A stretch of DNA of 64,000 nucleotides, taken from NCBI GenBank assembly GCA_002350725.1, contig DEFJ01000025.1, forward strand, positions 2,565 through 66,564, given 5' to 3'. The translations under genes were made by a program, and so were the position numbers. Below, in pieces: positions 789-56,914 of this stretch; the stretch's first letter is position 1, and each line of letters starts with the position of its first letter. Below the pieces are notes generated by a model. The model worked only from the letters and a program-made list of their open reading frames with translations, was not told where the DNA came from and searched no databases. This DNA is from Cyanobacteria bacterium UBA2855. GTDB taxonomy: Bacteria; Cyanobacteriota; Vampirovibrionia; Gastranaerophilales; Gastranaerophilaceae.

Positions 789-3700
789 ATTCTGTCAGTT
801 TTTCAATATTTGCACTTAATTTTGCAAGAGTTTTATCTATATTATCTATTCTGTCATTAATTGTTGAATCAGATTGCTTACTCAAAATATCCGCAATCTT
901 ATCCAGTTGCTTTTCAATTCTGTCTAGCCTGAAATCTTGTTGCGTTATTTTGGCTTCAATAGAATCTAGGATTGAATTCAACTTTTCGTCTTGAGCATTT
1001 AATCTGCTGTATATAGCATTTTGTAATTCTTCTGCTCTCAAATCACTTTGGGACGAAATATTTTCGACTGTATTCTGTAAATTTTCAATATTACTTTCCT
1101 GTTCTTTGTGCTTTGAATTAATAAATTCGTAAAGTTCTGCTTTCTGAGGCAAATAAGTTTTAATCTCATCAAGAGTTTCCGGCACAGCACATCTGTCATA
1201 TATCGTAGATAGCGTATCAGAAGTACCGTCCATCCATTCACCTAAATACATCATTACGTTTTTCATAACTTCCATCAAATCTGAAGTTATGCTTGATTTT
1301 TTATAAATTTCAGAAAGATATTTTTCCATACGTCTTGCGACTATTTTATTATCCAACCCTGAAATAGCATCTATGCTATTATTAAGTTTTTCAACAATCT
1401 CATTATCAATTTGCTTTTGCGAAAGCAATAATTGATTTAATCTTGAGCTGATACTCACAACATGTTCATTCAAATCACCATGTTCTGCTCTTTGGATTTC
1501 ATTTTCCACAAGAACATTTCTCAAATCTTCTAGCGATTTTGACATTTTATTAAAATTTGCTGAAATAACAGATAAATCATCACCCTCAGCTTTTGATGCC
1601 ATATCATTTATAACTAATCTCAATTTTGCAAAATCTGATTCAACGTCTTGCATTGTATAAGTATACAAATCCATATCGTCAGTATTATTATTCATTTCAG
1701 AAAGCTGACGTTTTACTTCAGTAAGCATATGATGTAATTCGTTAGTTTTTACATCGACAAAATCTTTTATTTCTTCAGCTTCCTCTACAAACGAAATTTC
1801 ATTTGTCGCTGCAACTACCGCAGAAATAACAGATTCTTTTATCTCTGCAGCACTTTTTGTCATATCAATTTCGTTAATATTTTTATCAATTTTATTAAGC
1901 TCATCAATAAGCTTATTTAAAGAAGTTTCTGTTGAGGAATTTTCTGAAGCATCTTTAATAGTCTGAATTTGCTCTTCAACAATTTGCCTTATTTCGGAAA
2001 TTTCTTCTAAAATATCCGAATCATCCGACATTGCAATAATATCAACCTTATTATTCAATTCTTTAATAAGATTTTCAAATTCTTTACCTGATTTTATATC
2101 GGATTTTATGGTATCAAGTTTTTCATGTACATCTGTGAATTGCGAGATTTCATCCAATTTATAATCCAAGTTTTTGGAATAATTTTCCAAATTTTCACCG
2201 GCAGATACCAACTGCTCTCTTATTTCACTCAGACTATCTTGAATTTCCCCAATTTCATTATATTCGTCATCATTTGTTGATAACGCAATAACATCCAATT
2301 TAGCATCAATTGATTTAACAAATTTATCTAACTTATCATCGGAAGACGAGATGTTATCCTTTATATCTTCAAGACTTGTCCTGATTTCTCCAACTTCATC
2401 GAGGACTTCCTCATCATTATTCTGAGCGATAATATCTAATTTATTGTTTATTACATCTACAGATTCTTTTAAACCTTCAAGTCCCGAAACACCACTTGTT
2501 TCAGATATATTTTCTATTTTTTCTTTTACTTCCTGTATTTTTGTTACTAACTCGGAATTTATAGCCGAAGCAAGCAGTAAATCTAATTTTTCAATGACAG
2601 TAGAAATATTATCTTCGTTTTTTCCTGATTTTTTGTCGGAGCCTTTTTTACTGCTATTTAATATATCTTTTAATTCATCAATAGCCTCAAGAATTACGGT
2701 ATTATCAGTTGCCATTGTAATTACATCAAGCTTTGCACCAATCTCATCCAAAGAACCCAGAATTTTATCTGCCTTTTCACCGGAATTTTCAAATTTGCTG
2801 TTTATTAGGTTAAAAGTTTTATCTAAGGTAGATTTTACATCAGTAACTAACTCGGTAAGTTCGGTAATTGAATAATCTGTATCCTGTTTTAGCTCATGTA
2901 TTCTATCCGCCAAACTCTTATTTAAACCGCGAATAACTTCCAACATATCATCGTTATCAATTAACGGAAGTATAGTATTTTTAATAGCCTCAGGATCGAA
3001 GTTACTTTTTGTAATTGCTCTTTGAACTTCTGCCAACCCATCCAAAATAGAAGAAGTTGTAAAAGTTCTGCTTTCTTGTATCTTTGATTCAATCTGCAAT
3101 AATTGTGCCTGAAAATCTGATTGGATATCTTCTGATACAGACAGATTGCTCTGTACATTTGTATTTATTGTATGAAGTATATTATTAATAGTATCAAGAT
3201 TAGCACTTACCGTATAGTTTAAAGAATCATCCAATGCAGAAAGCTTATCAACAGTATCTTTATAAGAATTTTCTATATTTGAAAAAGCTTCACTTTCAAG
3301 AATTTCTTCTTTTAACTCTGAAACTAAGTTTGCATAAGATAATTCCAAATCATCCTTAACACCTTTAACATTGCCGGATAAATCTTTTTCAGTAATAGCT
3401 AAAATAGCATCCTTTAATGGTTCAAACTCGGAAGTAAGTGTCTCTATTTTTTCACTAACAGCATCATCGATTTTATTTATGACACTTTCTACGTCTTCTT
3501 TAATGGAATTCAAGCCGGAATCCAAGCTGTTAACGAGATTGGTAGAAGTTTCTGAATTATTGTTATACAAGCCTTCTATGTTTTGGATTATCAAATATAA
3601 ATTGTTGTTTATCACGGAAAGCATCTCATCAAGAGTTTCCTTAACATCAGATACCGCACCCTCTTTTTCTTTGGTAATCTGGTCATCAATCACATTAAAT

Positions 3701-6300
3701 TGCTGTCGAATATTTGCTAAAATTTCAATTAAACCTGAATTTCCGACAAGATTTGTCAGTTTTTCAGACAAGTCATCGAAACGGGATTTAATATCATCAA
3801 ATTCTTCTGTAGCATCTTCCAATTTTGTATTTGTAAGAGTTGAAATTTGTTCAACTTTTTCCAGATACTCATTTACCTTTGAGCCAACGACAGCAAATGC
3901 TTGCTCATAATTTTGAGAATACTCGGAAAGTTGATTCCCCATTTCTGAAATTTTCAATGACAACGCAGAATCATCATACTCAGGATTAAACTCAGCCAAA
4001 GCCGAAGTTATCAAATCCAAAGAAGATTTCACCGTATCAATTTCCCACAACAAGGTTTCCTTACACTCAAAAACTTTACCGCTTATTGATTCTGAAATTA
4101 TTTCAATAGCTTCTTTATGAGGTAAAACATCACTTGCAAGAATTTTTAATTCGGAAATTTCGGATAATGCTTCGCTGCTCTTTGCATTTAACTCACTCGT
4201 AGCTTTATCAATATTTTCTTTGTATTCATTTATTACCGATGAAATTTTATCAAGCTTTTCATTCTTTTCGGCACTTTTTTCATTGATTAAATTTTCTAAT
4301 ATTGCAGCATCAAAATTTCCTGTATTAGCTTTATTTATAGACATTAAAGCTGTCTTAATCTCAGCAATTTTATCTGATAAATCCTCTTGAGTTAAATTCA
4401 AAGAGGTATTCAGCTTATCAAGTTTTTCGTCCTTATTCCTGCTGTGTTCGGAAATTATACCCTCGATCTTTCCATAATCGAAACTCTCTGACTTGTTTGC
4501 ACTACCATACTCAATAATTGAATCTTTTACCATATCAAGTTTTTGGGAAATTTCGTCTTTCGCCTCAAAAACTCTTGAAGAAATTCTATCCGAAACACTT
4601 TCAATATTTTCTTTATGAGAAATAACATCATTAACCAACGCTTTTATTTCAGATATTCCGGATAAAGTATCCTGATTTTTAGAATTTATTTCTCCTGAAA
4701 TTCTATCAAGTGAGTCTTTATAATCACGAACTGTATTATTTAAAGTATCTAATTTTTCATCCTTTGATGCGCTATGCCCTGATATGAAATTTTCTACACG
4801 TTCATAATCAAAATCATTTGCTTTAGCATTTTTAATTTCGTCCAATGCTGCGGCATTGCTCTCTAACAAAGATTGCAAACGTTCAAAATTTTCGTTTCTT
4901 TCAATATCAAATCGACTTACCAAAACATCCAAATCAGACAATTTTTCCAAAATTTCCGAATTATCCTGAGATGCCTGAATTTTATCAGAAAAATCTACAA
5001 ATAAGTCTTTTATACTTGAAAGATAATCTCCCAATTTTTCTGCGGTGTTATTTTTGAAGTCATCAACAGAATTAGCTACACCTTGCACCTTATCAAGAAT
5101 TGACTCTAAATTAGCAGAAGATTTTGCAAGCAAATCCTCTCTTACATTATAAATTTCAGCTATATCCGTTTCCTGTAAGCGTTTTACAACATCCTCAGAA
5201 TTCCTTTCTATAGATTCGGAAACAGCCCTAACTTCTTCTGCAGAAGCTTTTATCAGATTTTCCATTCCCTCATTCAATCTGACAAATCTGTCTTCTATTA
5301 CATCAAATTTATCATTTATGGATTTTTCATTATCAGCATGAGCAGAAGAAAATACTTCTCTAAATGCATTCAAAATCTCTATCAAATTATTTACTTTTGC
5401 AGAAACCGAATTTTCATAATCTTCAGCTTTGTTATTAATTTGATTTTCTACTTTCTTTACATAGTCCAAAATATCATTGCTAATCATTATCTGGCTATCA
5501 CCGCTTTGAACTATTTTATTTGTAATATCGCCATTTAAACCGCTAAATCTTTCGTTTATATTATCAGAATAGTGCAAAACATTTGCTTTCAAAGATTCCA
5601 TAGTAGTTCTCATATCCAGAGAAGTACTGTTCATTGATTCTGCAATATTACTGCTCAAATATTTTAAATGATCGAATCCGTCATTCAATATTTTCTGAAT
5701 ATCATCGCCTAATGCATAAAGTTTTGAATTTACATTACCTAAATTAGAAGAAACAGAAGCTTCCAACCCCTCTATTTTTGAGTTTGTATCATTAATTGAA
5801 TGCTCAATTGTTCCATATACATAGTTATTCTTTGAGGAATAATCATCGACTTTATTTTTTAAATCGACAAGAGCAGAAACCATGTTTCCATGACGAAGAT
5901 TTGAATCGGATATAAAGTTTTCATAACCTTTAACAAGTTCATCGGTTCTTTGTCTCAATGTTTCAACCATAACTCCGTTCTTGACCGCATTTTCTAACGC
6001 ATCTAACCTGTCTAACAAAAGATTTTTTGCATCTGCATCACGATTTGCAAATGTTACAACAGAATTAAATCCTGAACGAAAGTTATCTGCAAGAGTTTTT
6101 ACCTCTTCCGCTATCTCCGAATTATCCGTAGCTCTTGAAATTGTATTCTGAAGTTTTTCAAGGGTATCTTCTACACCCTGAAAGCTCCTTACACCTGCTT
6201 GGATTTCAGTTAAAAGTTTTTTATAATCTTCGTTATTAACATCATTATCACGTTTTAAATCTTCAATAAGAACTGCTAGTTCGTCTACTCTGTCTGCCAT
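778..6300 (-). CDS. Giant (~1840 aa) acidic coiled-coil protein, function unknown
   Basis: Uninterrupted 5.5-kb ORF. The preferred start is MADRVDEL (ATG 6300-6298), preceded by aaggaaaaagaa. Composition is dominated by E/D/K/L/I/N/S with heptad-like periodicity. No hydrophobic TM segment, signal peptide, Walker motif or catalytic motif was seen. Internal repeats are present. Confidence 0.85.
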   Translation of the reverse strand: MADRVDELAVLIEDLKRDNDVNNEDYKKLLTEIQAGVRSFQGVEDTLEKLQNTISRATDNSEIAEEVKTLADNFRSGFNSVVTFANRDADAKNLLLDRLDALENAVKNGVMVETLRQRTDELVKGYENFISDSNLRHGNMVSALVDLKNKVDDYSSKNNYVYGTIEHSINDTNSKIEGLEASVSSNLGNVNSKLYALGDDIQKILNDGFDHLKYLSSNIAESMNSTSLDMRTTMESLKANVLHYSDNINERFSGLNGDITNKIVQSGDSQIMISNDILDYVKKVENQINNKAEDYENSVSAKVNNLIEILNAFREVFSSAHADNEKSINDKFDVIEDRFVRLNEGMENLIKASAEEVRAVSESIERNSEDVVKRLQETDIAEIYNVREDLLAKSSANLESILDKVQGVANSVDDFKNNTAEKLGDYLSSIKDLFVDFSDKIQASQDNSEILEKLSDLDVLVSRFDIERNENFERLQSLLESNAAALDEIKNAKANDFDYERVENFISGHSASKDEKLDTLNNTVRDYKDSLDRISGEINSKNQDTLSGISEIKALVNDVISHKENIESVSDRISSRVFEAKDEISQKLDMVKDSIIEYGSANKSESFDYGKIEGIISEHSRNKDEKLDKLNTSLNLTQEDLSDKIAEIKTALMSINKANTGNFDAAILENLINEKSAEKNEKLDKISSVINEYKENIDKATSELNAKSSEALSEISELKILASDVLPHKEAIEIISESISGKVFECKETLLWEIDTVKSSLDLITSALAEFNPEYDDSALSLKISEMGNQLSEYSQNYEQAFAVVGSKVNEYLEKVEQISTLTNTKLEDATEEFDDIKSRFDDLSEKLTNLVGNSGLIEILANIRQQFNVIDDQITKEKEGAVSDVKETLDEMLSVINNNLYLIIQNIEGLYNNNSETSTNLVNSLDSGLNSIKEDVESVINKIDDAVSEKIETLTSEFEPLKDAILAITEKDLSGNVKGVKDDLELSYANLVSELKEEILESEAFSNIENSYKDTVDKLSALDDSLNYTVSANLDTINNILHTINTNVQSNLSVSEDIQSDFQAQLLQIESKIQESRTFTTSSILDGLAEVQRAITKSNFDPEAIKNTILPLIDNDDMLEVIRGLNKSLADRIHELKQDTDYSITELTELVTDVKSTLDKTFNLINSKFENSGEKADKILGSLDEIGAKLDVITMATDNTVILEAIDELKDILNSSKKGSDKKSGKNEDNISTVIEKLDLLLASAINSELVTKIQEVKEKIENISETSGVSGLEGLKESVDVINNKLDIIAQNNDEEVLDEVGEIRTSLEDIKDNISSSDDKLDKFVKSIDAKLDVIALSTNDDEYNEIGEIQDSLSEIREQLVSAGENLENYSKNLDYKLDEISQFTDVHEKLDTIKSDIKSGKEFENLIKELNNKVDIIAMSDDSDILEEISEIRQIVEEQIQTIKDASENSSTETSLNKLIDELNKIDKNINEIDMTKSAAEIKESVISAVVAATNEISFVEEAEEIKDFVDVKTNELHHMLTEVKRQLSEMNNNTDDMDLYTYTMQDVESDFAKLRLVINDMASKAEGDDLSVISANFNKMSKSLEDLRNVLVENEIQRAEHGDLNEHVVSISSRLNQLLLSQKQIDNEIVEKLNNSIDAISGLDNKIVARRMEKYLSEIYKKSSITSDLMEVMKNVMMYLGEWMDGTSDTLSTIYDRCAVPETLDEIKTYLPQKAELYEFINSKHKEQESNIENLQNTVENISSQSDLRAEELQNAIYSRLNAQDEKLNSILDSIEAKITQQDFRLDRIEKQLDKIADILSKQSDSTINDRIDNIDKTLAKLSANIEKLTEYVD

Positions 6301-6484
6301 TTCTTTTTCCTTAAAAAATACACTTTCCCATATATATTTTACCAAACTTATAGCAATTTTATCAATATGTTAAGTAATCTTACGTATAGAAATCGTATTT
6401 TGAAAATAAGTTTTATTCCGCTCATTGCTTTATTTTTATTAGGTGATATAATACACATGACATGGAGTTGTGAGGTTATAAAGG

Positions 6485-20544: not shown

Positions 20545-22545
20545 TTAAATTATTGTTGACAAAGATGGCGCAATTGCAATAAAGTGCCTTACTAAATCAG
20601 CATCCCAGAGTTTACCTGCACCCTCTTGAAGAATTTGACAAGCTTTTTCAACAGGCATCCCTTTTCTGTATGGTCTGTCACTAATCAAAGCGTGATATGT
20701 ATCTGCCACAGCAACAATTCTTGCGGAAAGCGGAATTTTATTACCTTTCAACCCTTCAGGATACCCGCTGCCATCAATATGTTCATGATGATACTTCACT
20801 ATTGGAATTAAATGAGAAAGTGCGTCATTAGGAGCAAGCACCTTCTCCGCACCAATTACAGGATGCTGCTTCATTATTTCCCATTCATCCGGTTCAAGAC
20901 GTCCCGGCTTTCTCAAAACATTTTCAGGAATACCGATTTTTCCGACATCATGCAACAAACCGCCTAATGTAATTTTTTGGACTTCTTCTTCAGGAAGATT
21001 GATTGCCCTTGCAAGAGCTTCGGCATATCTGGATACACTTGTAGAGTGACCCTTTGTATAAGGATCTTTTGCATCTATTGCACCCGCAAGAGATGTTACC
21101 ATCTCTATCAAATGATTTTGAGAAATTATTTCTTCATTATTGAATTTATGAACAAGCTCATCTTCAAAATTTATACCCAATTGTGCATGACGTTTAGCAA
21201 CAACTTCTGCAAATGAATTTAACGCTGCATCATCCCAGAAATTAAAATCAGAAGAACTGATAATTGCAGACATCCCTTCCTTGTATCCCTTCGCCTGAGA
21301 AATATACATAGCCTGTTCAGCAAGTATAAGCAATTTTTCCTGATCTTTTGAATTGTCAGGATATGTAGAAATACCTACAGATACTTTCACCGGTCCAACA
21401 TCATCCACAAAACAACAAGATAATGTATATGTAATATATTCAGCCAAATATTTTGCATCCGCAGTAGTTGTATTCGGTAAAATTACAGCAATTTCATCAC
21501 CGCCGTATCTTCCGGCTTTATCATTTGAACGAATATTTTGTTTTATTTTTTCTGCAAGAAGCTTAATTACTTCATCACCTTTTGCATGTCCCAATTCTCT
21601 GTTAATTTTTGATATGTTATTTATATCAAACATTACAACAGACAAAGGAGTATCTGTTTCTTTTGCTTTTTGTAGTTCATTTGCCAAAACCTCTTGGAAA
21701 CCTCTGTGGTTATACAGATTTGTCAGGGTATCGGCATTATTATACTTATTTGCTTTTTCTCTTAATTCTATATTTTGCAAATATAATGCAGCATAGTTTG
21801 CGATAAAAGATAGAATACCTAAATTGCAATCTTCATTATTTTTGCCCAATATCATTACACCAATAGTCTGATTAAGAGAAACCAACGGCAATATAACAGT
21901 AGCACTATCTTTTAAATATGGAATATTTAAAAATCTATTGTCATTCTTAATTATAGAAGATGCCTTTGTAAAGCATTCAATTACAGGATTTTCAACTTCT
22001 GATAAAAATATTTTTGAAGAATATGTACTACCGGAAACACTGGTTAATTTTAAATTAATACATTTTGACTTCTCATGATATGAACCGAATGCCAAAAAAG
22101 AACAATTTAATTTTTCGATAAATATAGAAGTATATGCCCCAATAATATCATTTAAAGAACTTTTGTTTTTCAAAGCAACATTCAAATCAGAAATTATTGA
22201 ACTGTAATCATCATATCCGGAAATAGTTGGAGAAATAGAGTTGTGGAGATATCCTCCATACATTTTATTAGAGGATTTTACCATATTGATATTATTTATT
22301 TTGGCAACAATCTCTCTGTTACGATTAATAGGATTATCCGTAGGCAGAATATCTCTCGGATTAGCGGTTGTCACAGACGAATTTTTCTTACGTACGACTT
22401 TTGAAGGCATGCCTGAGCGATTTTTACGCGCATCAGAAGATGGCACATTGTTTTTTGCCGTAGGATTCGATACAAGTTGAGCTGAAACTGCTTCCGCCTC
22501 ATTTGTCTCAATATTTTGTTTTGATTTTACATTTTTATCCAACAC
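20545..22545 (-). CDS. GAF-GGDEF-HD-GYP composite c-di-GMP signalling protein
   Basis: RYGGDEIAV (GGDEF) and HDVGK...HHEHIDGSGYPEGL (HD-GYP) motifs. The N-terminus is disordered and Ser/Asn/Lys-rich. Confidence 0.85.
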   Translation of the reverse strand: MLDKNVKSKQNIETNEAEAVSAQLVSNPTAKNNVPSSDARKNRSGMPSKVVRKKNSSVTTANPRDILPTDNPINRNREIVAKINNINMVKSSNKMYGGYLHNSISPTISGYDDYSSIISDLNVALKNKSSLNDIIGAYTSIFIEKLNCSFLAFGSYHEKSKCINLKLTSVSGSTYSSKIFLSEVENPVIECFTKASSIIKNDNRFLNIPYLKDSATVILPLVSLNQTIGVMILGKNNEDCNLGILSFIANYAALYLQNIELREKANKYNNADTLTNLYNHRGFQEVLANELQKAKETDTPLSVVMFDINNISKINRELGHAKGDEVIKLLAEKIKQNIRSNDKAGRYGGDEIAVILPNTTTADAKYLAEYITYTLSCCFVDDVGPVKVSVGISTYPDNSKDQEKLLILAEQAMYISQAKGYKEGMSAIISSSDFNFWDDAALNSFAEVVAKRHAQLGINFEDELVHKFNNEEIISQNHLIEMVTSLAGAIDAKDPYTKGHSTSVSRYAEALARAINLPEEEVQKITLGGLLHDVGKIGIPENVLRKPGRLEPDEWEIMKQHPVIGAEKVLAPNDALSHLIPIVKYHHEHIDGSGYPEGLKGNKIPLSARIVAVADTYHALISDRPYRKGMPVEKACQILQEGAGKLWDADLVRHFIAIAPSLSTII

Positions 22546-22831: not shown

Positions 22832-23035
22832 ATGTATAAATGTAAAATTTGTAATAAGATATACCCAAATAGAATTGATTACTGCGAATGCGGCAGCAGC
22901 GATTTTGAAATTATAGAACAGAGAAAACCTGCGGCGCAACCCGCGGAGAATCCTGAAGAGAGCAGAAAAAGATTAATCTCATGGATAATCTTCGGCGTAT
23001 TTGTATTTGCAGCAATACTTATTTGGTTCATATAG
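22832..23035 (+). CDS. Zinc-ribbon membrane-anchored small protein (67 aa)
   Basis: CKIC...CECG zinc-ribbon followed by a C-terminal TM helix (LISWIIFGVFVFAAILIWFI). Confidence 0.55.
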   Translation: MYKCKICNKIYPNRIDYCECGSSDFEIIEQRKPAAQPAENPEESRKRLISWIIFGVFVFAAILIWFI

Positions 23036-23037
23036 TA

Positions 23038-23616
23038 TTAATATTCAATACCTTTTCGTGCAGTAACTCCGGTATCCCAATAGTGTTTTATCGGATTGAT
23101 TTCCGATACCAAATGTGCTATCTCAACAATTTCAGGCTTGGCATTTCTGCCAGTCAACACAATTTCCATATCCTCAGGCTTATTTTTTAAAACTTTAAGC
23201 ATCTCTTTCATTTCAATAAACCCTAAATCTATAGCGATATTAGCCTCATCAAGAATAATAAGATTGTATTCATCATTTTGAATAGCTTTTTTTGCCAAAT
23301 CCCAGCCTTTCTTAATTTCAGTTAAATCGGCATCACACTTGTTATTACGATATACAATTCTATCTAATCCTGCTTGGACAATAGTTAAATTTTCGGCTAT
23401 TGCAGGGGATAGATTTCTAAACGAATTTAATTCTCCATAATCATCTCCGCCTTTTGTAAACATAACAATAAGCACCTTCCAATTACGCCCCAAAGCTCGC
23501 ATTGCAAGCCCCAACGATGCAGTTGTTTTTCCTTTGCCATTTCCGGTATAAACTTGAATGTATCCGTGTTTTGCCCAATCAGGATTTATTAAAGTATTTT
23601 TTAATTCGTCTTTCAT
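23038..23616 (-). CDS. cobO: Cob(I)yrinic acid a,c-diamide / cob(I)alamin adenosyltransferase
   Basis: YTGNGKGKTTASLGLAMRALG P-loop and CobA/CobO/BtuR family layout. Confidence 0.85.
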   Translation of the reverse strand: MKDELKNTLINPDWAKHGYIQVYTGNGKGKTTASLGLAMRALGRNWKVLIVMFTKGGDDYGELNSFRNLSPAIAENLTIVQAGLDRIVYRNNKCDADLTEIKKGWDLAKKAIQNDEYNLIILDEANIAIDLGFIEMKEMLKVLKNKPEDMEIVLTGRNAKPEIVEIAHLVSEINPIKHYWDTGVTARKGIEY

Positions 23617-41561: not shown

Positions 41562-43055
41562 TTATGCTGAGAAAGTTTTGAAAGTATCAGATGTATTCTT
41601 TTCAATAACTTTAGATACAGCATCTTTTTCTGTTTGAATAGCTTTTTGCTCAGTATCAAGTTGTTTCAATCTCAATTCAAGATTTTTATCTTCAGCTTGA
41701 ATTACTTCAATTTTAGCGTTGATTTTTTCAACAGCTTGATCATATAAAGCTTTATCATATTCATATTGATTCATTGCATCGTTATATTTTTCTTGATCGG
41801 TAGCAGTTTCAGTTGTCAAAGGATAATCAACATAGATTAAAGAACCGTCATCTAATGCTGTCGGAATACTCAAGGTAATCAATCTGCCGGAAGAATCTTT
41901 TTCAATCTTACAATTTTGAACACCTTTAAATTCTTCAATTTTTTGTTCACTACCGATTGTGTAGCAGTTAATTTTTGATAAAGAAGTTTTTGTTGTTCCG
42001 TCATATATAGCATTTTCTAAATCATTTACCGCATAGAAGTATGGTCTGTGAATACCTGTAGTAGTATCAAGGGCATATCTGACCATCCAGTCTTTTTGAC
42101 CATATTTTTGAGTTAATAATTCTCTCCAAGCAGCTTCTTCTTTTAAAGTATTAGCAAGCTGAGTCGGAGATAAAGTGCTTAAATATTCATCGTCAGTCGC
42201 ATAAGAGCTTGTTGTAATGCTGTTTATTTGATCTTGAGTAAGGTAGTTTTTATTTGTTACTTGCTCATACGGTTCATAATAATAATTACCGTCTGCATTT
42301 TTTTCAATTAAAGTAGTACTGTATTCCGCATCATCCTCGGCATTACCGGTATTTACTTCATTATATAATGCAATAAGCAAATCATCTTCGGTTACCCCCG
42401 GTAAATCAGTACGATTTTCATCATCGTCAAGAGTGTAGAAACCGCCTGTTGCAGCATCTTTAAACACTTGAGATATAATTTTATTGGTTGTCTGATCGTA
42501 TTGGTAATATTCAAAATTAGCAATTTCGTTTTGCGGTACTTGTTGTCTTGGTTGTTTTTCATAAGCCAATTCTTCATAGTAAGGACCGGCAGCATCTGTC
42601 TTGACATTGTAAGTCTTACCATTAACAACTATAGAATTTCCAAGAGTAGTGGTACCCGTAAGAGAACCTAATTCTCTAAGATTTCTTGAACCTATAGCAT
42701 AGATATAATTACCTGCTGTACCCAACTGAGAAACAACACTTGTCGCAGCAGCAATTGCAGCATAATCGTCTTGCCATTTTGACAAATAACTCATTGTATA
42801 CATACCGTTTGATTGAGCAATCATAGAGGTAACAGTATTTGTTAAAGCCCCATCAGAGAATGTATAAATTGTTTTTGTATAACTGTCGACAGAAGGAGGT
42901 GTAGGTACTGACATACCTAACAAATCATTATAATAATTTGCAGATTCGTTAGATAACATTGTACGCTGTTGGTTAATCTGTTGACCTTCAAACTCGACAT
43001 TGTTTTGTCTTGCCGTAAGCCCTAAAAATCTAGCTTGTGATGCTGCCATTCCCAT
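41562..43055 (-). CDS. Filament-like protein, paralog 2 (497 aa)
   Basis: MGMAASQARFLGLTARQNNVEFEGQQINQQRT... and ...YNDAMNQYEYDKALYDQAVEKINAKIEVIQAEDKNLELRLKQLDTEQKAIQTEKDAVSKVIEKNTSDTFKTFSA match paralog 1. The core is unrelated. Confidence 0.85.
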   Translation of the reverse strand: MGMAASQARFLGLTARQNNVEFEGQQINQQRTMLSNESANYYNDLLGMSVPTPPSVDSYTKTIYTFSDGALTNTVTSMIAQSNGMYTMSYLSKWQDDYAAIAAATSVVSQLGTAGNYIYAIGSRNLRELGSLTGTTTLGNSIVVNGKTYNVKTDAAGPYYEELAYEKQPRQQVPQNEIANFEYYQYDQTTNKIISQVFKDAATGGFYTLDDDENRTDLPGVTEDDLLIALYNEVNTGNAEDDAEYSTTLIEKNADGNYYYEPYEQVTNKNYLTQDQINSITTSSYATDDEYLSTLSPTQLANTLKEEAAWRELLTQKYGQKDWMVRYALDTTTGIHRPYFYAVNDLENAIYDGTTKTSLSKINCYTIGSEQKIEEFKGVQNCKIEKDSSGRLITLSIPTALDDGSLIYVDYPLTTETATDQEKYNDAMNQYEYDKALYDQAVEKINAKIEVIQAEDKNLELRLKQLDTEQKAIQTEKDAVSKVIEKNTSDTFKTFSA

Positions 43056-43148: not shown

Positions 43149-44552
43149 TTAAGCTTGGTATGTCCACCACTTCCAAGATGGCTCTAAATTAACATCTTCC
43201 TGACTATAATAAGTTGCGATATGTTCTCTTATTTCGTCAAGTTCTTTAAAGCCCCACCACGCACCTTCGCTGACGCTATCTAAGTAATCTTCACCTGCTT
43301 GGTAAGCAACATGTTCACCCCATTTAGGTAAATTTGTAGGATATAAATATGCTGTGGCATGGGTCACTTCATGAACCATTACTTCAACCAAATCATACCA
43401 TTTTGTGCTTGAATTTTTTGCCATGTTTACATCTAAAAACATACCGCCCATACCATCACCCTCATCATCATCAGAATACCATGAGGTTCCGGCACTGTTC
43501 ATATAATACAAGTATACACCCAGCGTTGTTCCGCTACCGCTGCTGTCTTTATTTAAGTCATCATATGCAATTTTATTTGCAGCTTTTAATCTGGCAAGAG
43601 CATTTGCTTGATCTGTCATGCCGGCAGCATTAAAATATTCTTCCGTTCTTGCGATAACAAACGCTTTCTTTTGATCTAATGTCATTGCACTGAATTTTGC
43701 TTGAATTTTTGCGGCATAAGCCTCTATTCTTTGTTGATATTCACGTTCGACAGAATTTGCCAAATCCGAATCATTTGCTATCGTTCCTGTTTGAATATCA
43801 ATCATACTGTCAATTAAATCAGGATAAGCTTTTATAAATGCTTTAATTTCATCCGCTGACAATACACTGTTTGAATTGTCATCCAATACATTAAATACTT
43901 TATTTATCTGGCTGAAAAAATATCCGAAATCTTCTTCTAAATCATCATCTTGAGTCAATTTTACAAGTTGAGCTCTTGTAATACCTGTATCTTTTGTTAT
44001 AGAACCGTTTTTGGAATTTACATAAGTAAAAAACTTATCAAAAACAAGATTTACTTTTTCGTCTAACTCAGTTTCACTATCTCCGCCATCTTCACCCCCT
44101 GTAGGGTCAGTAGGATCGGTTGGATTTGTCGGATCGGTTGGATCTGTTGGATCTGTTGGATCCGTTGGATATATCGGTTCCTCTATAGGAAGCGTCGGAT
44201 TAGTCGGATTAGTTGAACCAGAAGATTTATGGTGCAATTCATAAATAACTTGTTTAATATCTTTAATTTGCTGTTCGGACAAATCACTAATAGTAATTGC
44301 ATACCCTTTTTTAATATTTTCCGTAGCCGTAGCATCATGAACACAAGAGTTCTTCGTATTGCCTGAAACGGCAATATGATTTGCTATACTAAATATGGTT
44401 TCATTCTCGTTTTCTTCCAAGACTTTTTCCACCAACTGTTTAATCTCCATGGCTTCATCCGGATTTTTCAAAGTGAAGTCTTTTGTAGTCTGCAAGTCAA
44501 CTTTCTTTTGTGTAGCTACCATCTTTAAAAACGGGGTATTTTGAATTTCCAT
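43149..44552 (-). CDS. HExxH (zincin-like) protein with (PTD/PTN)n linker and an EF-hand-like loop (467 aa)
   Basis: Start MEIQNTPF at 44552 has a strong SD (aaggag, 7 nt upstream). HEVTH is encoded at 43359-43373. The linker reads PTNPTNPTLPIEEPIYPTDPTDPTDPTDPTNPTDPTDPT. DDNSNSVLSADE fits the 12-residue EF-hand loop pattern. No signal peptide. Confidence 0.75.
   Translation of the reverse strand: MEIQNTPFLKMVATQKKVDLQTTKDFTLKNPDEAMEIKQLVEKVLEENENETIFSIANHIAVSGNTKNSCVHDATATENIKKGYAITISDLSEQQIKDIKQVIYELHHKSSGSTNPTNPTLPIEEPIYPTDPTDPTDPTDPTNPTDPTDPTGGEDGGDSETELDEKVNLVFDKFFTYVNSKNGSITKDTGITRAQLVKLTQDDDLEEDFGYFFSQINKVFNVLDDNSNSVLSADEIKAFIKAYPDLIDSMIDIQTGTIANDSDLANSVEREYQQRIEAYAAKIQAKFSAMTLDQKKAFVIARTEEYFNAAGMTDQANALARLKAANKIAYDDLNKDSSGSGTTLGVYLYYMNSAGTSWYSDDDEGDGMGGMFLDVNMAKNSSTKWYDLVEVMVHEVTHATAYLYPTNLPKWGEHVAYQAGEDYLDSVSEGAWWGFKELDEIREHIATYYSQEDVNLEPSWKWWTYQA
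44101..44170. repeat. 9-bp tandem repeat (GGATCNGTT)n encoding the (PTD)n linker
   Basis: ggatcggttggatttgtcggatcggttggatctgttggatctgttggatccgttgga: about 7 imperfect in-frame units. Confidence 0.85.
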
Positions 44553-44641
44553 AAAGTACTCCTTATATTCATCGTATATATCGGAATACTTTTTTATTAT
44601 CTTTAGTGATTTCAAAATATATGTTACAAATTTTTACATAC

Positions 44642-45340: not shown

Positions 45341-45366
45341 GAGCCTCTTTCTGAGGCTCTTTTTTT
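45341..45366 (+). terminator. Strong intrinsic terminator whose U-tract is on the plus strand
   Basis: GAGCCTCtttctGAGGCTC followed by TTTTTTT on the + strand. On the minus strand the stem is followed only by GUUGGAAUU. Confidence 0.6.
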
Positions 45367-45378
45367 GCAGTATTGCTG

Positions 45379-45840
45379 CTATTTTGACAGATAACTTAAT
45401 ATTGCCCCGCCAATTTCTTCATTTGGATCAAACGGCACGGTCGCAGATTTACTCAAAGAATTTTGAATTAGAAAATTTAATAATACCCCAAATGCATCCG
45501 GAACTTGCGTTTTTCGATAAATTCCGGCCAAAAAGGTTTGAAGATAAGGAGATTTTGAGCTATTCAGACGTGATAAAGAAGGATACATTTTATCAATCCC
45601 TTTTGTACCGTTATCAAGCATGCGATTTAAAATATACAAAGTTTCTGTCAATTGAGCCTCATTTTGAGAATATTTTACAATTTCTTCCAAATACGGCAAA
45701 GCTTTTTCACCTTGTCGAACAAACATATCTGTTTTATTCTCATCAAATTTTATATAGTTATACTGTTTTTTAGGCATATATTGTGGTGTTGGGTATTGTA
45801 CATATTTAATATCTACAGGATTTCCTACCGGATTAATCAT
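45379..45840 (-). CDS. Orphan helical-repeat (HEAT/ARM-like) protein (153 aa)
   Basis: Start MINPVGNPV at 45840 has SD aaggag. The ORF-track start overlaps the upstream gene. The helical repeat pattern is ALPYLEEIVKYSQNEAQLTETLYILNRML. Confidence 0.65.
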   Translation of the reverse strand: MINPVGNPVDIKYVQYPTPQYMPKKQYNYIKFDENKTDMFVRQGEKALPYLEEIVKYSQNEAQLTETLYILNRMLDNGTKGIDKMYPSLSRLNSSKSPYLQTFLAGIYRKTQVPDAFGVLLNFLIQNSLSKSATVPFDPNEEIGGAILSYLSK

Positions 45841-45853
45841 GATTATCTCCTTT

Positions 45854-47356
45854 TTATGAATATACAAACGGAGGTCCGTTTTTAATTTCCAATAATATAT
45901 TTTCTGCCATGGTCTTGAGCTGTTCTTTAGGTTTACCCTCATCAACTTTTGAGAAAAACTCCTCGACGAGCGGCTTTATAGCGGCATCTTTCTTAGCTTT
46001 AAAATTTCTTAATTCAGTTGATATGAGTCTGCGCTGCAAATCTAACTCAGTTTGGGCATTAATTTTTTTGACCTGAACCTCTTTAATAGCATCTCCTACA
46101 ATTTTTCCTCCATAACTCACAGCCGCAAGAGCAGTTGTACCAAAGAAAAGTTGCTGAAATTGCTTGTTATCCGGTTCAATCAACAAATTATAGAAAAACG
46201 CTCTGTAATCATCAACAAAGGAAGAAAATGAAGGTTTTTGAGTCCCATCGCCACCGATATTTGGATTAACTTTTACTGTCGAAGTATTTATTTTATTCAT
46301 TACGCGAGTAACAAAGCGTTGCTTCTCTTTTTTAGACCACGAAGTATGTTTCACCACTTCATCAATATCTGATTGATTTGCATTTATAAATTGAAGCATG
46401 TTTTCCAAATAGTCTTGAACATATTTTTTATTCTTTGAAGATTTTGCAATTATTTGCATATCCTGCTTAGTTTTCTCAATAAACTTTTGAGTTTCAACTG
46501 TTCCTGCTCTCAAATTTTTCATTGAATAAAGCGACAGGGCAACAATAGATGCAAAAGTAGCCGAACCAAGTGCAAAATATTTAAAAAATCCGGAATGCTC
46601 TTTTTTATTGGCATCGGATGCTCCAAATGACAAATCTTTTGAAGATGTAAACATTCCAAATGGCTGTATTTTTGGCTCAGACGGCATAAGATATTCCGAG
46701 AAAAGTTTTGTTTTTTCGGAAAGCATATTTCTTATAATTTGCATTTTTCCGCTAAATGATTGAGTTTCAACCGCAATAAGATTTTCCTGCAAGTCTTTTT
46801 GAATATCAGCTTCACGCTTTTTTACCCAAACATCTTTAAATCCGTCAAGAAATGTTTTACCCATAAATGCAGTGGCGGTCAAGGTTAATACCCCAAGTCC
46901 GGCACGAACGGTTTTTCTGTTCGGGTTCTGAACCATTTGGACAATAGCCTGAACAGTTTCTTCATTAATTGATATATTACGGGTGAAGGAAGTTATCCAT
47001 TTTTCTTTTGCAATCTCGTTTGTAATTTTTGCATTACGTTTTACAAACGCTGATACGCCTGCGAATATTCCCATCACACCGACCGCTAAAGCGCTAATTG
47101 GGAGCAAACTGCGCTCAGGATTTGTCAAATTCTCACCCAATTGTTTTGGCAGTTTTGTATGGCTTGAAATTATCAATGTATCCCTTGTATCATCAAGATT
47201 ATAAGAATTTGGTAATACATTATTTTCATCATTATCTTTAATGAAATTGTTTACAATTACCCCTTCTTTTGTTTTATAACTGTTAACCTTTTGACTGGTA
47301 GTCAGATTTCTGTGCTGACGGCGAGTTTCACTATCATTAAATTGTATTTTATTCAT
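45854..47356 (-). CDS. Orphan membrane protein (500 aa, ~4 hydrophobic segments)
   Basis: TM-like segments LLPISALAVGVMGIFAGVSAFV, GLGVLTLTATAFMG, FKYFALGSATFASIVALSLYSM and LFFGTTALAAVSYGG. The ATG overlaps the upstream stop (ATGA). Confidence 0.8.
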   Translation of the reverse strand: MNKIQFNDSETRRQHRNLTTSQKVNSYKTKEGVIVNNFIKDNDENNVLPNSYNLDDTRDTLIISSHTKLPKQLGENLTNPERSLLPISALAVGVMGIFAGVSAFVKRNAKITNEIAKEKWITSFTRNISINEETVQAIVQMVQNPNRKTVRAGLGVLTLTATAFMGKTFLDGFKDVWVKKREADIQKDLQENLIAVETQSFSGKMQIIRNMLSEKTKLFSEYLMPSEPKIQPFGMFTSSKDLSFGASDANKKEHSGFFKYFALGSATFASIVALSLYSMKNLRAGTVETQKFIEKTKQDMQIIAKSSKNKKYVQDYLENMLQFINANQSDIDEVVKHTSWSKKEKQRFVTRVMNKINTSTVKVNPNIGGDGTQKPSFSSFVDDYRAFFYNLLIEPDNKQFQQLFFGTTALAAVSYGGKIVGDAIKEVQVKKINAQTELDLQRRLISTELRNFKAKKDAAIKPLVEEFFSKVDEGKPKEQLKTMAENILLEIKNGPPFVYS

Positions 47357-48057
47357 TCTGTACTACCTTTCCGTCTTAATTCCGTATCATCATCACCCTT
47401 TAGTCTTTTATATAAATTATGTATAAAGGTCTTTAGTTTGAAGGCTTTTTTAGCCTCATCGACTTTCTTTTCATCATTTTGCGCATCTTGAGGATTAAAA
47501 ATGGAGAACAATGATTTTACTTTTTTCTTAAATTCGTTAAGAGGTTCTCCTATTTTTTTGGAAATAGCAGCCTTTATTTCGCCATAAATAGCAGACAATT
47601 TATCAGAAATATCAATTAGTTTTTGAGATACAAATTGCACTATATTATGTACTACATGTGGGATATTTTTAATGATATTCAGAGCATTACCAATAGTGAA
47701 ATTAATAACAAAATTTATAGGTCTGGCAAGTATTTGCGGCAAAGAATTTGAAATTTGCCCCGTTATATTTGCGAGTCTTTCTGACACACTCATCATAAAT
47801 TTATCAAAAGCCGCAAGACGTTGTGCAAAGCTTATAGCATCTTGCTGTCTTTGAAGCTTCGCATTTTGTTGAGCCTTTAGCATTGCACCAATTGCCGCAC
47901 ATTCATTCCAACTCATTTCTCCCGGCTTTGCCGTATGGTCAGCAGTTTTCATCCCTCCGCCCATTCCGTTACAAATAGGGCAAGCACCCAAAGGCGCACC
48001 ATGCGGACAGGTACCCGATTTCATAATATTAGGTTGTGACATCACTGCAGACGGCAT
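47353..48057 (-). CDS. Orphan protein with N-terminal Cys/His knuckle (CPHGAPLGACPIC) and helical body (234 aa)
   Basis: The preferred start MPSAVMSQ at 48057 has SD gaagagga 9 nt upstream. It is the first gene behind the structured leader. Confidence 0.7.
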   Translation of the reverse strand: MPSAVMSQPNIMKSGTCPHGAPLGACPICNGMGGGMKTADHTAKPGEMSWNECAAIGAMLKAQQNAKLQRQQDAISFAQRLAAFDKFMMSVSERLANITGQISNSLPQILARPINFVINFTIGNALNIIKNIPHVVHNIVQFVSQKLIDISDKLSAIYGEIKAAISKKIGEPLNEFKKKVKSLFSIFNPQDAQNDEKKVDEAKKAFKLKTFIHNLYKRLKGDDDTELRRKGSTE

Positions 48058-48224
48058 TAAAAAATCCTCTTCATATACACATTGCAAAGAGGACAACTCT
48101 AATCGGATAAGAATTTCCATATCGCACGTAGAAATTCATCACATATTGAGCATTCCGGCTTTCCCGCAGATGCGGCATACGGTTGCGGCTACAGTCGGGG
48201 AATTTCACCCCGTTTCCTCGTTTG
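48058..48224 (-). promoter_or_regulatory. Structured 5' leader: candidate short (class-II-like) cobalamin riboswitch plus SD-sequestering/terminator hairpin
   Basis: Minus-strand RNA: CGAGGAAACGGGGUGAAAUUCCCCGACUGUAGCCGCAACCGUAUGCCGCAUCUGCGGGAAAGCCGGAAUGCUC (48146-48222). It is the only GC-rich intergenic block in the window. Downstream are hairpin GAAUUUC-13-GAAAUUC (48111-48137) and hairpin UCCUCUU-15-AAGAGGA (48065-48092), which contains the SD and is followed by UUUUUU and the AUG. Confidence 0.5.
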
Positions 48225-48231
48225 TATTCAT

Positions 48232-48260
48232 ATCCTAAAATAACCATATACCAATGTCAA
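48232..48260 (-). promoter_or_regulatory. Promoter TTGACA-17-TAGGAT driving the riboswitch-like leader
   Basis: Minus strand: TTGACAttggtatatggttatttTAGGAT. Confidence 0.55.
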
Positions 48261-48278
48261 CAACCGCAGCGGTTTTTC

Positions 48279-48307
48279 TTGACAATAATAATGCGGCATT
48301 GTACTAT
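48279..48307 (+). promoter_or_regulatory. Divergent promoter TTGACA-17-TACTAT for the DUF4145-like gene
   Basis: TTGACAataataatgcggcattgTACTAT, 15 nt upstream of the ATG at 48323. Confidence 0.55.
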
Positions 48308-48322
48308 TATATCGGGAAATTA

Positions 48323-49099
48323 ATGATGGCTGCAAATTTTGATTTTTTAAAAAAAACTGACAAAAATTTATTTGAAATTATTAATGAAGCTGAAAAACTA
48401 TATCGCGATGAATATTTTTCACAATGCATTACTCAAACCAGACAATTTGCAGAAAATGTATGTAAAAATGTACTTGGAGATAAACGTACGGTTGAAGAAA
48501 CTTTTGACGATATGTTGGCAACGCTAAAGGATAACTCCTCAGGAGAAGAGCAGGAAAAAGAATTTATTGATGACTTATATTTTCTAAAAAAACAAGGAAA
48601 TGATGCAGTTCACTCTTCAACAAACAATAAAAGCGGTATGGAGGCACTTGAATGCTTACAAAGAGCCTTTGAAGTCGCAATAAATTATGCGGTATACAAC
48701 AAGGGCGCAAAATCGGATATTTTAAAATTAAGATATGATACAGAGCTTCTTGTTACAGGTAAAAAGTCTAAAAAATCTTTATCAGAAAAATATGAAGAAG
48801 CTAAAGAAAACGAAGAAAAGAAAACTTCAACAAAAACTAAAAAATCTACAGGTTCAAAAAGGGGAAGAAAATCAAAAAAAGAAATAAGTGTATTCCCCAT
48901 AAGTTGGGGTATAAAGCCTAAAGAAAAACCTCAAACAAAAAAAGAAAATAAAAAGAAAAAAGTTTTCACAAAACAATCATACTCAATGAAACATAAAAAT
49001 AACAAAAAAGGTCTGCCGATATTTTGGATAATCGTCGGTATATCTTCTTTCATTTCGTTAGTTGTAATATTATCAATGTTTATCGCAAGTGTTCTGTAA
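48323..49099 (+). CDS. DUF4145-like N-terminal domain, Lys-rich linker, C-terminal TM anchor
   Basis: The start was moved to MMAANFDFLKK, downstream of the promoter found inside the ORF-track N-terminus. FDFL...AE.L....P..C....R.FAE pattern, KKSKKS.../KRGRKSKK linker, and final TM helix IFWIIVGISSFISLVVILSMFIASVL. Confidence 0.55.
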   Translation: MMAANFDFLKKTDKNLFEIINEAEKLYRDEYFSQCITQTRQFAENVCKNVLGDKRTVEETFDDMLATLKDNSSGEEQEKEFIDDLYFLKKQGNDAVHSSTNNKSGMEALECLQRAFEVAINYAVYNKGAKSDILKLRYDTELLVTGKKSKKSLSEKYEEAKENEEKKTSTKTKKSTGSKRGRKSKKEISVFPISWGIKPKEKPQTKKENKKKKVFTKQSYSMKHKNNKKGLPIFWIIVGISSFISLVVILSMFIASVL

Positions 49100-54970: not shown

Positions 54971-55236
54971 TGGAAAAGGATTTAGAATACTATTTAAATC
55001 TTGATTGGACACTAATCGAGGGAGAGGACTTGGATTTTGAAGGGAAACCTTATCATTACATAATGATAGACGAAATCCCGAGCTTCTGTTTCTGCGCAAA
55101 GACACCTGAAAAAGCGCACGAAAATTATAAAAAGCAGTTAAAATTAACTCTAACGGTAATGCTTGAAACGGGGGAACACATAAAAGAGCCGGGAGAAGAA
55201 GACTCCGAACCCGATTGGGAATCTCTCTGCCCGTAA
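54967..55236 (+). CDS. Small acidic protein, HicB/UPF0150-like fold (tentative)
   Basis: 89 aa, ATGA-coupled to the upstream gene. The pattern Y...I.E.P.....A.T.EKA is reminiscent of the HicB N-domain. No hicA-like partner was seen. Confidence 0.35.
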   Translation: MMEKDLEYYLNLDWTLIEGEDLDFEGKPYHYIMIDEIPSFCFCAKTPEKAHENYKKQLKLTLTVMLETGEHIKEPGEEDSEPDWESLCP

Positions 55237-56641: not shown

Positions 56642-56914
56642 ATGCAGACATATTCAGTACAAACTCATGGGATTTGCCCGAAAGCTATCTCTTTTGCCAT
56701 TGATAACGGCAAAATTTATGACATAAAATTTTTTGGCGGATGCCCGGGTAATACTGCAGCTATCGCAAAATTACTGGAAGGCACTGATGCAAAAAATGTT
56801 GTTGATGTATTAAAAGGCAACGATTGCGGTGGCAGAGGAACATCATGCGCAGACCAACTTGCAAGAGGTGTTGAACAAGCACTGGCCGAAGCAGGTGCCG
56901 TTCAACAAGCCTAA
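56642..56914 (+). CDS. TSCPD-domain small protein (TIGR03905-like)
   Basis: Strong SD ggagga. ...I.DIKF.GGCPGN..AI..L.EG......V...L.G..CG.RGTSCADQLA pattern. Confidence 0.7.
   Translation: MQTYSVQTHGICPKAISFAIDNGKIYDIKFFGGCPGNTAAIAKLLEGTDAKNVVDVLKGNDCGGRGTSCADQLARGVEQALAEAGAVQQA

Follow-up and report, generated by a model that had tools for sequence, protein, structure and literature searches.

Why does an RNA leader that resembles a cobalamin riboswitch precede an operon with no obvious connection to vitamin B12? The question is raised by a 64 kb stretch of DNA (contig DEFJ01000025.1) from Cyanobacteria bacterium UBA2855, a member of the Gastranaerophilales. In this stretch, from here on called the window, the leader and the three genes that follow it, g1, g2 and g3, are read on the minus strand. 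The Gastranaerophilales/Melainabacteria are a non-photosynthetic sister lineage of Cyanobacteria. An earlier inspection of the DNA letters, referred to as the sequence-only reading, had taken the leader for a cobalamin riboswitch of the class-II/AdoCbl-variant type or, alternatively, for a different or new aptamer class, and had suggested that the three genes could be a new corrinoid-related module. The analyses described here place the leader RNA in the known family RF01689, of which it is a new member with a compact variant architecture. In all probability it is a class-II cobalamin riboswitch that represses the g1-g2-g3 operon when corrinoids are plentiful. A search of the literature on riboswitches, cobalamin and B12 in Melainabacteria and Gastranaerophilales found no description of the leader element or of g1-g3.

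The leader and its RNA family

The leader is preceded by a sigma-70-type promoter (48232..48260, minus strand) composed of a -35 box TTGACA (48260-48255), a 17-nt spacer and a -10 box TAGGAT (48237-48232), which ranked second-best in a scan for promoter-like sites. Counted from a predicted transcription start near 48225, the leader is about 168 nt long. It contains the G+C-rich core CGAGGAAAC-GGGGUGAAAUUCCCC-GACUGUAGCCGCAACCGUAU...CUGCGGGAAAGCCGGAAUGCUC at 48220-48148 (minus strand), and it ends in a hairpin (UCCUCUU, 15 nt, AAGAGGA) whose 3' arm is the Shine-Dalgarno (SD) sequence, followed directly by U6 (48064-48059) and the AUG (48057-48055). The promoter, the core block, the hairpin and a length of about 165 nt had all been pointed out by the sequence-only reading, and they are present as described. 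Its statement that the leader holds the only GC-rich intergenic block in the window needs a small correction. The aptamer does stand out, with a G+C content of 60% compared to a window mean of 33%, but other comparably GC-rich segments of 80 nt that appear intergenic are located at 56821-56900, 55154-55233 and 22884-22963. The one of these three that was checked, 56821-56900, is within an open reading frame (ORF) of 90 aa and hence is not an intergenic GC-rich block.

A scan with 4227 Rfam families identified RF01689 (AdoCbl-II) as the sole family at or above its gathering score in the 64 kb. The match (48140..48234, minus strand) scored 42.0 bits, above the gathering score of 36.5, and its E value, calculated over both strands of the complete window, is 1e-6. 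It includes an outer 'P1' formed by 48234-48229 and 48145-48140. The aptamer scored best with RF01689 and not with RF00174, the class-I family, and a permissive scan of 47900-48400 yielded no competing Rfam family. The class-II/AdoCbl-variant assignment therefore held in the covariance-model comparison, and it extended to related genomes. RF01689 passed in 9/9 orthologous loci tested (37.2-49.2 bits), in each case directly upstream of g1 and as the only Rfam match.

A scan with one genome per GTDB species produced 80 g1 loci, designated here by L numbers, and their leaders were read in a stretch of 260 nt that precedes the conserved CPHG codons. The same leader is recognizable by eye upstream of g1 in all 80 species-level genomes. 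Each one has a TTGACA-type promoter followed by AGAGGAAAYGGRGUGAAnAUCYCC..CUGYWGCCGCARCCGUAAAAGYCGGAAYRCUC, and its 3' part consists of a long helix bearing a hairpin with the loop ACGYGCAG and then GUCCUCU...AGAGGAUUUUUUAAUG. Alignment A2 comprises the window and 76 distinct leader sequences, 77 leaders altogether. The core nucleotides of RF01689 (GGAAA, GUGAAAnUC, GCCGCA, CCGU...AGYCGG and the J6/3 junction) are invariant or nearly so in the 77 leaders. The promoter is also well conserved: TTGACA or TTGACT is found at -35 in 56 of them, the spacer is 17 nt in 54, and the distance from the end of the -10 box to GAGG is 8-13 nt in 59. With all RF01689 core positions kept, the suggestion of a different or new aptamer class was not supported.

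Could the Rfam match be a chance resemblance within a G+C-rich patch? The score exceeds the gathering score by only 5.5 bits, and the outer P1 included in the match is spurious. Nonetheless, the E value of 1e-6 and the conservation of the element in 80 species-level and nine more distant loci, with compensatory changes, speak against chance. The comparative data refute this explanation, and we regard its probability as negligible.

Structure of the aptamer

Mutual information was computed for every pair of columns in A2 with no structure assumed, and the top-scoring pairs were a P13 stem pair, a pair between the loops L5 and L13, the closing pair of P4 and a long-range pair (31-68). When the full proposed structure was imposed, 88% of the cells were paired, as opposed to 29-49% for slid partners, and compensatory changes were observed in 4/5 pairs of P4, 3/4 pairs of the L5-L13 kissing loop and 7/7 pairs of P13. 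Covariation among homologous leaders thus supports P4, P13, the long-range pair and the kissing loop, and it is a further line of evidence for the class-II assignment.

The aptamer core (48148..48219, minus strand), as determined from the Rfam consensus alignment, A2 and the pair counts, is a four-way junction. P3 is formed by GAG and CUC (48219-48217 with 48150-48148) and is followed by GAAA in J3/4, by P4, P5 and P6, and then by AAUG in J6/3. P4 (48196..48212, minus strand) is the hairpin CGGGG-UGAAAUU-CCCCG with a T-loop-type L4. Its closing pair is U-A in 64 leaders and C-G in 13, and another of its pairs is G-C in 49 and A-U in 20. P5 and its loop L5 (CUG-UAGCCG-CAA, 48183..48194, minus strand) provide the aptamer half of the kissing loop, and the partner is L13 (48130-48119, UACGUGCGAUAU), the loop of the P13 hairpin (48111..48137, minus strand). 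Position 48190 in L5 covaries with position 48123 in L13 (U-A 34, A-U 20), the second-highest mutual-information pair of the whole leader, and a further L5/L13 pair covaries as C-G 36 and U-A 9. The pairing read from A2 leaves one nucleotide of L13 without a partner. A kissing loop with unpaired or non-canonical nucleotides is a regulatory hallmark of cobalamin riboswitches (PMC5028336, PMC7367189). The Rfam model draws P5 with 3 bp and a 4-nt loop. That version was set aside in favor of CUG/CAR with a 6-nt loop, which fits the kissing-loop covariation; the invariant bases themselves cannot decide between the two.

P6 (CCG/CGG) with its short hairpin extension GCCGCAUCUGCGGG occupies 48155..48182 (minus strand) in the A2 alignment. 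The extension is 14 nt long in the window, and an insertion at this point occurs in only 8/77 leaders (the window, L001-L005, L044 and L048), while the remaining leaders have a 7-nt loop (CCG-UAAAAGY-CGG). In L044 (7778-7985) and L048 (1329-1535) the insertion reaches about 50 nt (UGCCCUCUUUUGCAUAUUUUAUGUAAAAUGGCCUCUCC...), far above the size seen in the remaining leaders. Position 48158, the final base of the P6 loop, covaries with 48195, the base after P4 (G-C 46, A-U 25).

The outer P1 of the Rfam match deserves separate consideration. With the promoter 8-13 nt upstream of P3, the P1 of RF01689 is probably not transcribed. It overlaps the -10 box in the three leaders examined (the window, L010 and L033), and the conserved position of the promoter suggests that this overlap is general. 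From the sequence, P1 and J1/3 are probably absent from the RNA, which would start a few bases upstream of GAGGAAA, so that the aptamer would consist of the P3-P6 four-way junction only. P1 and J1/3 contact the ligand in Cbl-IIa riboswitches, and the subtypes are told apart by the form of J1/3 and by the P6 extension, a loop in Cbl-IIa and a short hairpin in Cbl-IIb (PMC7367189). The two subtypes also differ in selectivity, for methylcobalamin/hydroxocobalamin (MeCbl/HyCbl) and adenosylcobalamin (AdoCbl), respectively. In the leaders studied here these traits are mixed: J1/3 is apparently absent, and P6 has a plain loop in most orthologues and a short hairpin in the clade of the window.

The closest structural counterpart, env8HyCbl (Cbl-IIa, PDB 4FRN, RF01689), has in common with the window leader the P3-P6 four-way junction, GGAAA in J3/4, the GUGAAAUUC T-loop-type L4, the AAUG in J6/3 and a short P6, which in most orthologues is the 7-nt UAAAAGY. 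The L5-L13 kissing loop with an unpaired L13 nucleotide is also common to both, and the OFF logic predicted for the window leader is likewise that of env8HyCbl. The window leader differs in that it apparently has no P1 or J1/3, its promoter being located 8-13 nt upstream of P3, and in that its clade shows the short P6 hairpin, a trait associated with Cbl-IIb (PMC7367189). Class-I cobalamin riboswitches (RF00174), such as those of T. tengcongensis (4GMA) and the E. coli btuB leader, belong to the same clan (CL00101) and share the core and the kissing-loop principle. The window aptamer, however, has neither their P2 module nor the large extension that P7-P11 add to P6.

Some observations weigh against the structure and its proposed operation. 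Cells changed on both sides numbered 249 versus 97 ± 8 in shuffles, but the sequences are related, so the shuffle control overstates the significance and no probability is attached to it. The helices P3, P5 and P6 never vary, and covariation is therefore uninformative on them. At the covarying kissing-loop position the clade of the window has A opposite G, a non-canonical pair, although env8 likewise has an A-G pair there. Finally, a transcription start further upstream than predicted could let a weak P1 form.

Expression platform and switching

The hairpin at the end of the leader (48059..48093 including U6, minus strand; stem and loop at 48093-48065) has the GAGG of the SD sequence at 48069-48066, and both its sequence and its folding are those of a combined terminator and SD-sequestering element. 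Upstream of it, AUUAGAG (48097..48103, minus strand) provides the 3' strand of a helix whose other strand, in the fold predicted without ligand, is CUCAAU (48150-48145); a helix of this type reads CUCAAAGAA...UUCUUUGAG in most loci. The CUC at 48150-48148 has therefore two possible partners, the 5' GAG, with which it forms P3, and the downstream GAG at 48099-48097. Similarly, the 5' GAGGA of the aptamer is identical to the GAGGA of the SD sequence, so both are able to pair with UCCUC at 48093-48089.

These alternatives were compared by thermodynamic folding. When the 3' arm of the hairpin was left out, which mimics the state during transcription, the pairing of the 5' GAGGA with UCCUC was part of the minimum-energy structure in 67/75 leaders. 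In the full leaders, the terminator/sequestor hairpin was found in the minimum-energy fold of 52/75. Constrained folds of the window gave -41.0 kcal/mol for the closed aptamer with the hairpin and -38.7 kcal/mol for the anti-terminator, and the corresponding values for L051, a typical short leader, were -34.5 and -36.5 kcal/mol. The two folds are thus nearly isoenergetic, and with a difference of about 2 kcal/mol ligand binding together with the kissing loop would be able to decide between them. The OFF-switch platform recognized by the sequence-only reading was reproduced by these calculations, with the SD hairpin and U6 folding as predicted and a competing anti-terminator now added to the picture.

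The following mechanism is proposed. Without ligand, the UCCUC in the 5' arm of the downstream hairpin would be occupied by the 5' GAGGA, and the CUC that closes P3 would pair with the downstream GAG in the P13-bearing helix. The SD sequence AGAGGA would then be free, no terminator would form, and the operon would be ON. Upon binding of a corrinoid, P3 (GAG/CUC) would close, GGAAA would enter the binding core and L5 would kiss L13. The UCCUCUU freed in this way would pair with AAGAGGA, and the resulting hairpin with U6 would terminate transcription and mask the ribosome-binding site, turning the operon OFF. The predicted switch is therefore OFF with corrinoid and would affect termination as well as the access of ribosomes. 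The ribosome-binding site of env8HyCbl is inside L13 (PMC5028336). In contrast, that of the window is outside L13, in the separate hairpin, and the 5' strand of the aptamer itself is the predicted anti-terminator.

In two leaders (L054:2305-2410 and L078:7875-7979) there is no terminator/sequestor hairpin, and the SD GAGGA abuts the 3' strand of P13, an env8-like arrangement.

A switch that acts on translation only or on termination only, or that operates through the kissing loop alone without the GAGGA anti-terminator, appears rather unlikely. It would be in keeping with the plasticity of the platform: L054 and L078 manage with an SD next to P13, L13 itself is inside the sequestering hairpin in L084 and L085, and L089 has a clean terminator upstream of the SD sequence. 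Moreover, the GAGGA pairing is beyond the reach of a covariation test since both copies are otherwise constrained. However, a run of five to seven U residues follows the hairpin in nearly all leaders, its 3' arm is the SD sequence so that both effects are physically coupled, and GAGGA:UCCUC is the minimum-energy solution in the large majority of the truncated leaders. For these reasons the dual mode of control is preferred.

The regulated genes

The gene directly downstream of the leader, g1 (234 aa; 47353..48057, minus strand), has a start that was moved from the mechanical ORF call to the position indicated by the alignment of homologues. Its product has no transmembrane segment and is predicted to form long helices. 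The residues that are invariant even in the most distant members are C-x-H-G-x5-C-P-x-C-x-G and, about 20 residues on, M-S/T-W/Y-x-E. Judging from its sequence, the Cys/His cluster looks like a metal-binding type. There are 1763 homologues of g1, and in an exhaustive profile search the family amounted to 247 clusters at 50% identity. Among 120 listed homologues the only named organism was Candidatus Gastranaerophilaceae, and most of the titled genome records in the species-level scan are Gastranaerophilales or Melainabacteria.

The second gene, g2 (500 aa; 45854..47356, minus strand), overlaps g1 by ATGA. The protein has four hydrophobic segments, two of them strong and two weaker, with a long helix after each one, and its C-terminus, NILLEIKNGPPFVYS, is highly conserved; the predicted model resembles a scaffold of coiled coils in the membrane and not a channel or transporter fold. 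The third gene, g3 (153 aa; 45379..45840, minus strand), starts 13 nt after g2 and encodes a soluble protein. The regulated unit probably ends just past the g3 stop codon, at a G+C-rich hairpin (45341..45359). Between this hairpin and the next gene there are a gap of 370 nt and a near-consensus promoter-like site at 45093-45065. The T-run of the hairpin is on the plus side only, and termination of the minus-strand transcript at this point is thus an indirect deduction. In the 80 loci g1 is accompanied by g2 in 78-80 and by g3 in 75-78. The upstream neighbors of g1 vary, and the genes found frequently but not constantly after g3 encode a coiled-coil protein family, a polyprenyl synthetase and a signal peptidase.

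Comparison of g1-g3 with Pfam, NCBIfam, PHROGs and PADLOC gave no family match, only sub-threshold coiled-coil noise, and the PHROGs and PADLOC scans offered no support for the idea that the module stems from a phage or a defence system. No domain was recorded in the precomputed Pfam fields for any of 240 listed homologues. A profile of the g1 family found nothing below E = 0.006 among PDB sequences, the weak matches all being coiled coils. The AlphaFold2 model of g1 had a mean predicted local distance difference test score (pLDDT) of 40 and was unusable for a fold search; that of g2 had a pLDDT of 58.6, and a Foldseek comparison with the PDB yielded no match at E <= 0.001, only generic helical bundles.

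Distant g1-g2 loci

Nine distant homologues of g1, 29-48% identical to that of the window, were used to examine how far the coupling between riboswitch and genes extends. The contexts of L082-L089 were obtained by exact protein lookup, and L081 was the one contig returned by a metagenome scan with a 2-sequence alignment of distant g1 homologues. A g2 homologue adjoins g1 in 9/9 distant loci, and g3 is present too in L083, L084 and L086. A riboswitch of the cobalamin clan at or above the gathering score is located directly upstream in 9/9. It is RF01689 in 7/9 (37.7-51.3 bits), and the two leaders outside this family, L081 and L082, match the class-I type RF00174 instead, at 40.7 and 46.6 bits, where the gathering score is 31.5. 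A class-I riboswitch can thus precede the same g1-g2 module.

The kissing loops were re-matched in these leaders: UGGGCC faces GGCCCA in L084 and L085, CUGG(U)CC faces GGCCAG in L087, and AGCG faces CGCU in L089. Expression platforms of three designs were recognized. The ribosome-binding site abuts or is inside P13 in L054, L078, L081, L082, L084 and L085; the combined terminator/sequestor is found in the window and most loci; and in L089 a clean terminator precedes the ribosome-binding site. All three would be of the OFF type. Coupling to a cobalamin riboswitch is therefore kept in 89/89 related loci, with two riboswitch classes and three kinds of platform. That the riboswitch has been swapped and rewired while its coupling to g1-g2 was retained argues strongly for a module function that depends on cobalamin status. 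Repression of the g1-g2 module by B12 would then be strongly conserved, the direction of the response being deduced from the platforms.

The same loci bear on whether the cobalamin-riboswitch fold senses another ligand, as a new aptamer class derived from the cobalamin scaffold. Such a change could be accommodated by the missing P1 and J1/3, the parts that touch the ligand in Cbl-IIa structures (PMC7367189), and by regulated genes without a recognizable relation to B12. Every core position of RF01689 is kept, however, and the bona fide class-I-type RF00174 riboswitches of distant orthologous modules are hard to explain unless the same corrinoid is sensed. We consider another ligand very improbable, and the leader is treated as a cobalamin riboswitch in what follows.

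Function of the module

Since every examined relative keeps the riboswitch-gene pairing, g1-g3 are strong candidates for a B12-related function. The sequence-only proposal of a new corrinoid-related module is thus strengthened, a corrinoid role being a candidate one: the coupling is kept in 89 loci, and the genes have no detectable homology to any known family. Corrinoid acquisition or handling is our best guess, and a tentative one. It is suggested by the combination of OFF-type control, a membrane component and a protein with an invariant Cys/His cluster, and also by the corrinoid adenosyltransferase encoded in the window together with the incomplete B12 synthesis predicted for the lineage. 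The adenosyltransferase gene, cobO (23038-23616, minus strand), had been named by the sequence-only reading, and its product matches PF02572 with E = 7e-59. Gut Melainabacteria are predicted from genome reconstructions to have an incomplete B12 synthesis (PMC4914512, Table 1).

In its specific form, the proposal is that g1-g2-g3 serve a Melainabacteria-specific corrinoid acquisition or trafficking system, in which the Cys/His cluster of g1 would bind cobalt or corrinoid and g2 would be the membrane partner. This version is possible but stays on the doubtful side. The usual cargo of cobalamin riboswitches, BtuB/BtuFCD, ECF-CbrT, BtuM and BtuG, is like g1-g3 in that it is found behind an OFF-type cobalamin riboswitch and includes a membrane protein, and BtuM ligates cobalt through cysteine, a residue of the invariant cluster of g1. 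Nevertheless, g1-g3 have no similarity in sequence or fold to these systems, and neither the profile comparisons of g1, g2 and g3 nor the fold comparison of g2 gave a significant match to BtuB, BtuC/D/F, ECF-CbrT, BtuM or CbiMNQO. The proteins lack transporter or binding-protein folds, albeit in models of low AlphaFold2 confidence, and the scaffold-like appearance of g2 is not that of a channel; both points count against an uptake system.

The same observations favor a true cobalamin riboswitch in control of a module unrelated to uptake, either a B12-independent substitute or a B12-cued membrane or envelope function. The g1-g3 proteins show no transporter, binding-protein or enzyme signature, g2 is predicted to have long coiled-coil helices on two to four hydrophobic segments, and the coiled-coil family, polyprenyl synthetase and signal peptidase in the neighborhood are of the envelope type. 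OFF-type B12 riboswitches also control B12-independent isozymes, for example metE and nrdDG. On the other hand, the module contains no enzyme-like domain to take the place of a B12 enzyme, ligation of a metal or corrinoid would be a fitting role for the invariant Cys/His motif of g1, and a conserved cobalamin riboswitch in B12 auxotrophs most often marks uptake genes. This explanation is quite plausible, if short of probable, and a B12-sparing or B12-cued envelope function and corrinoid acquisition are regarded as about equally possible.

A link to nrdD/nrdG was considered and rejected, as these genes are more than 1 kb away, on the other strand, and in only 11/80 loci. NrdD-like and NrdG-like genes are found 1-4 kb upstream of g1 in those 11 loci, for example at L011:5723-7582 (minus strand) and L050:3613-4293 (minus strand). 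They were read from the motifs GGTVVHIY..CPNHGY..CPDCG and the radical-SAM CxxxCxxC, and no riboswitch was seen adjoining them. NrdD/NrdG are B12-independent isozymes under B12 control in some bacteria.

Neighboring genes

Downstream of the operon, g6 (41562-43055, minus strand) belongs to a family with relatives at L065:9680-10789 and L074:933-2606. Its members have a conserved N-terminus (MGMAASQARFLGLTARK.NVE.EGQQ.NQQR), a highly variable middle and a conserved C-terminal coiled coil (..KNLELRLKQLDTEQKAI..VIEKN...FKTF), a layout that resembles filament subunits. A member of this family, which has no Pfam match, follows g3 in 60/80 loci, and a paralogous family is found upstream in 16 loci. 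Between g3 and g6, in only 12/80 loci, there is a gene (43149-44615, minus strand, in the window) whose 488-aa product contains the repeat PTDPTDPTDP, a stretch similar to an EF-hand and, near the C-terminus, HEVTH (HExxH); from its sequence this protein is possibly a secreted metalloprotease. In 26 loci, for example at L060:14775-15476 (plus strand), a gene about 6 kb downstream of g1 resembles those for type IV pilins and encodes an N-terminus of the prepilin type (FTMAEVLITIGIIGIVAA).

The divergent ORF upstream of the leader (48254-49099, plus strand) encodes an N-terminal region similar to positions 1-210 of NF008521, the N-terminus of the type I restriction endonuclease subunit (E = 5e-13); a linker rich in lysine follows, and the C-terminal tail is hydrophobic. 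Elsewhere this ORF is conserved ahead of g1 in L001 only. The ATG listed for it overlaps the -35 box of the riboswitch promoter, so the true start is probably further downstream. Elsewhere in the window, the G+C-rich 90-aa ORF (56642-56914, plus strand) ends in ..GNDCGGRGTSCADQLARGVEQAL and presumably resembles a TSCPD domain, which B12-dependent class II ribonucleotide reductases carry at their C-terminus and which occurs in small stand-alone proteins as well. An ORF of 1855 aa (778-6345, minus strand) appears to encode a giant helical-repeat protein, the only family signal being a sub-threshold match to PF01442 (62.5 bits, cut-off 90). A protein with GGDEF and HD-GYP-type (HD_5) domains (20545-22545, minus strand) could make and degrade cyclic di-GMP and is unrelated to the riboswitch.

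Significance

Unannotated genes behind a cobalamin riboswitch have time and again opened up new areas of B12 biology, such as transporters, surface binding proteins and decyanases. For RNA biology, the leader described here offers a compact class-II architecture, apparently without P1 or J1/3, in which the 5' strand of the aptamer doubles as the predicted anti-terminator. The g1-g2 module, usually with g3, is without known relatives and confined to those relatives of cyanobacteria that live in gut and rumen and are not photosynthetic. What makes the finding valuable is this regulated, lineage-restricted and uncharacterized module, whose link to B12 is backed by 89 loci. If true, its interpretation as a corrinoid system would explain repression by B12 throughout the family across two riboswitch classes and three platform designs. 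The module is a well-defined and directly testable candidate for corrinoid acquisition or economy in an abundant, uncultured gut lineage that is predicted to be auxotrophic for B12.

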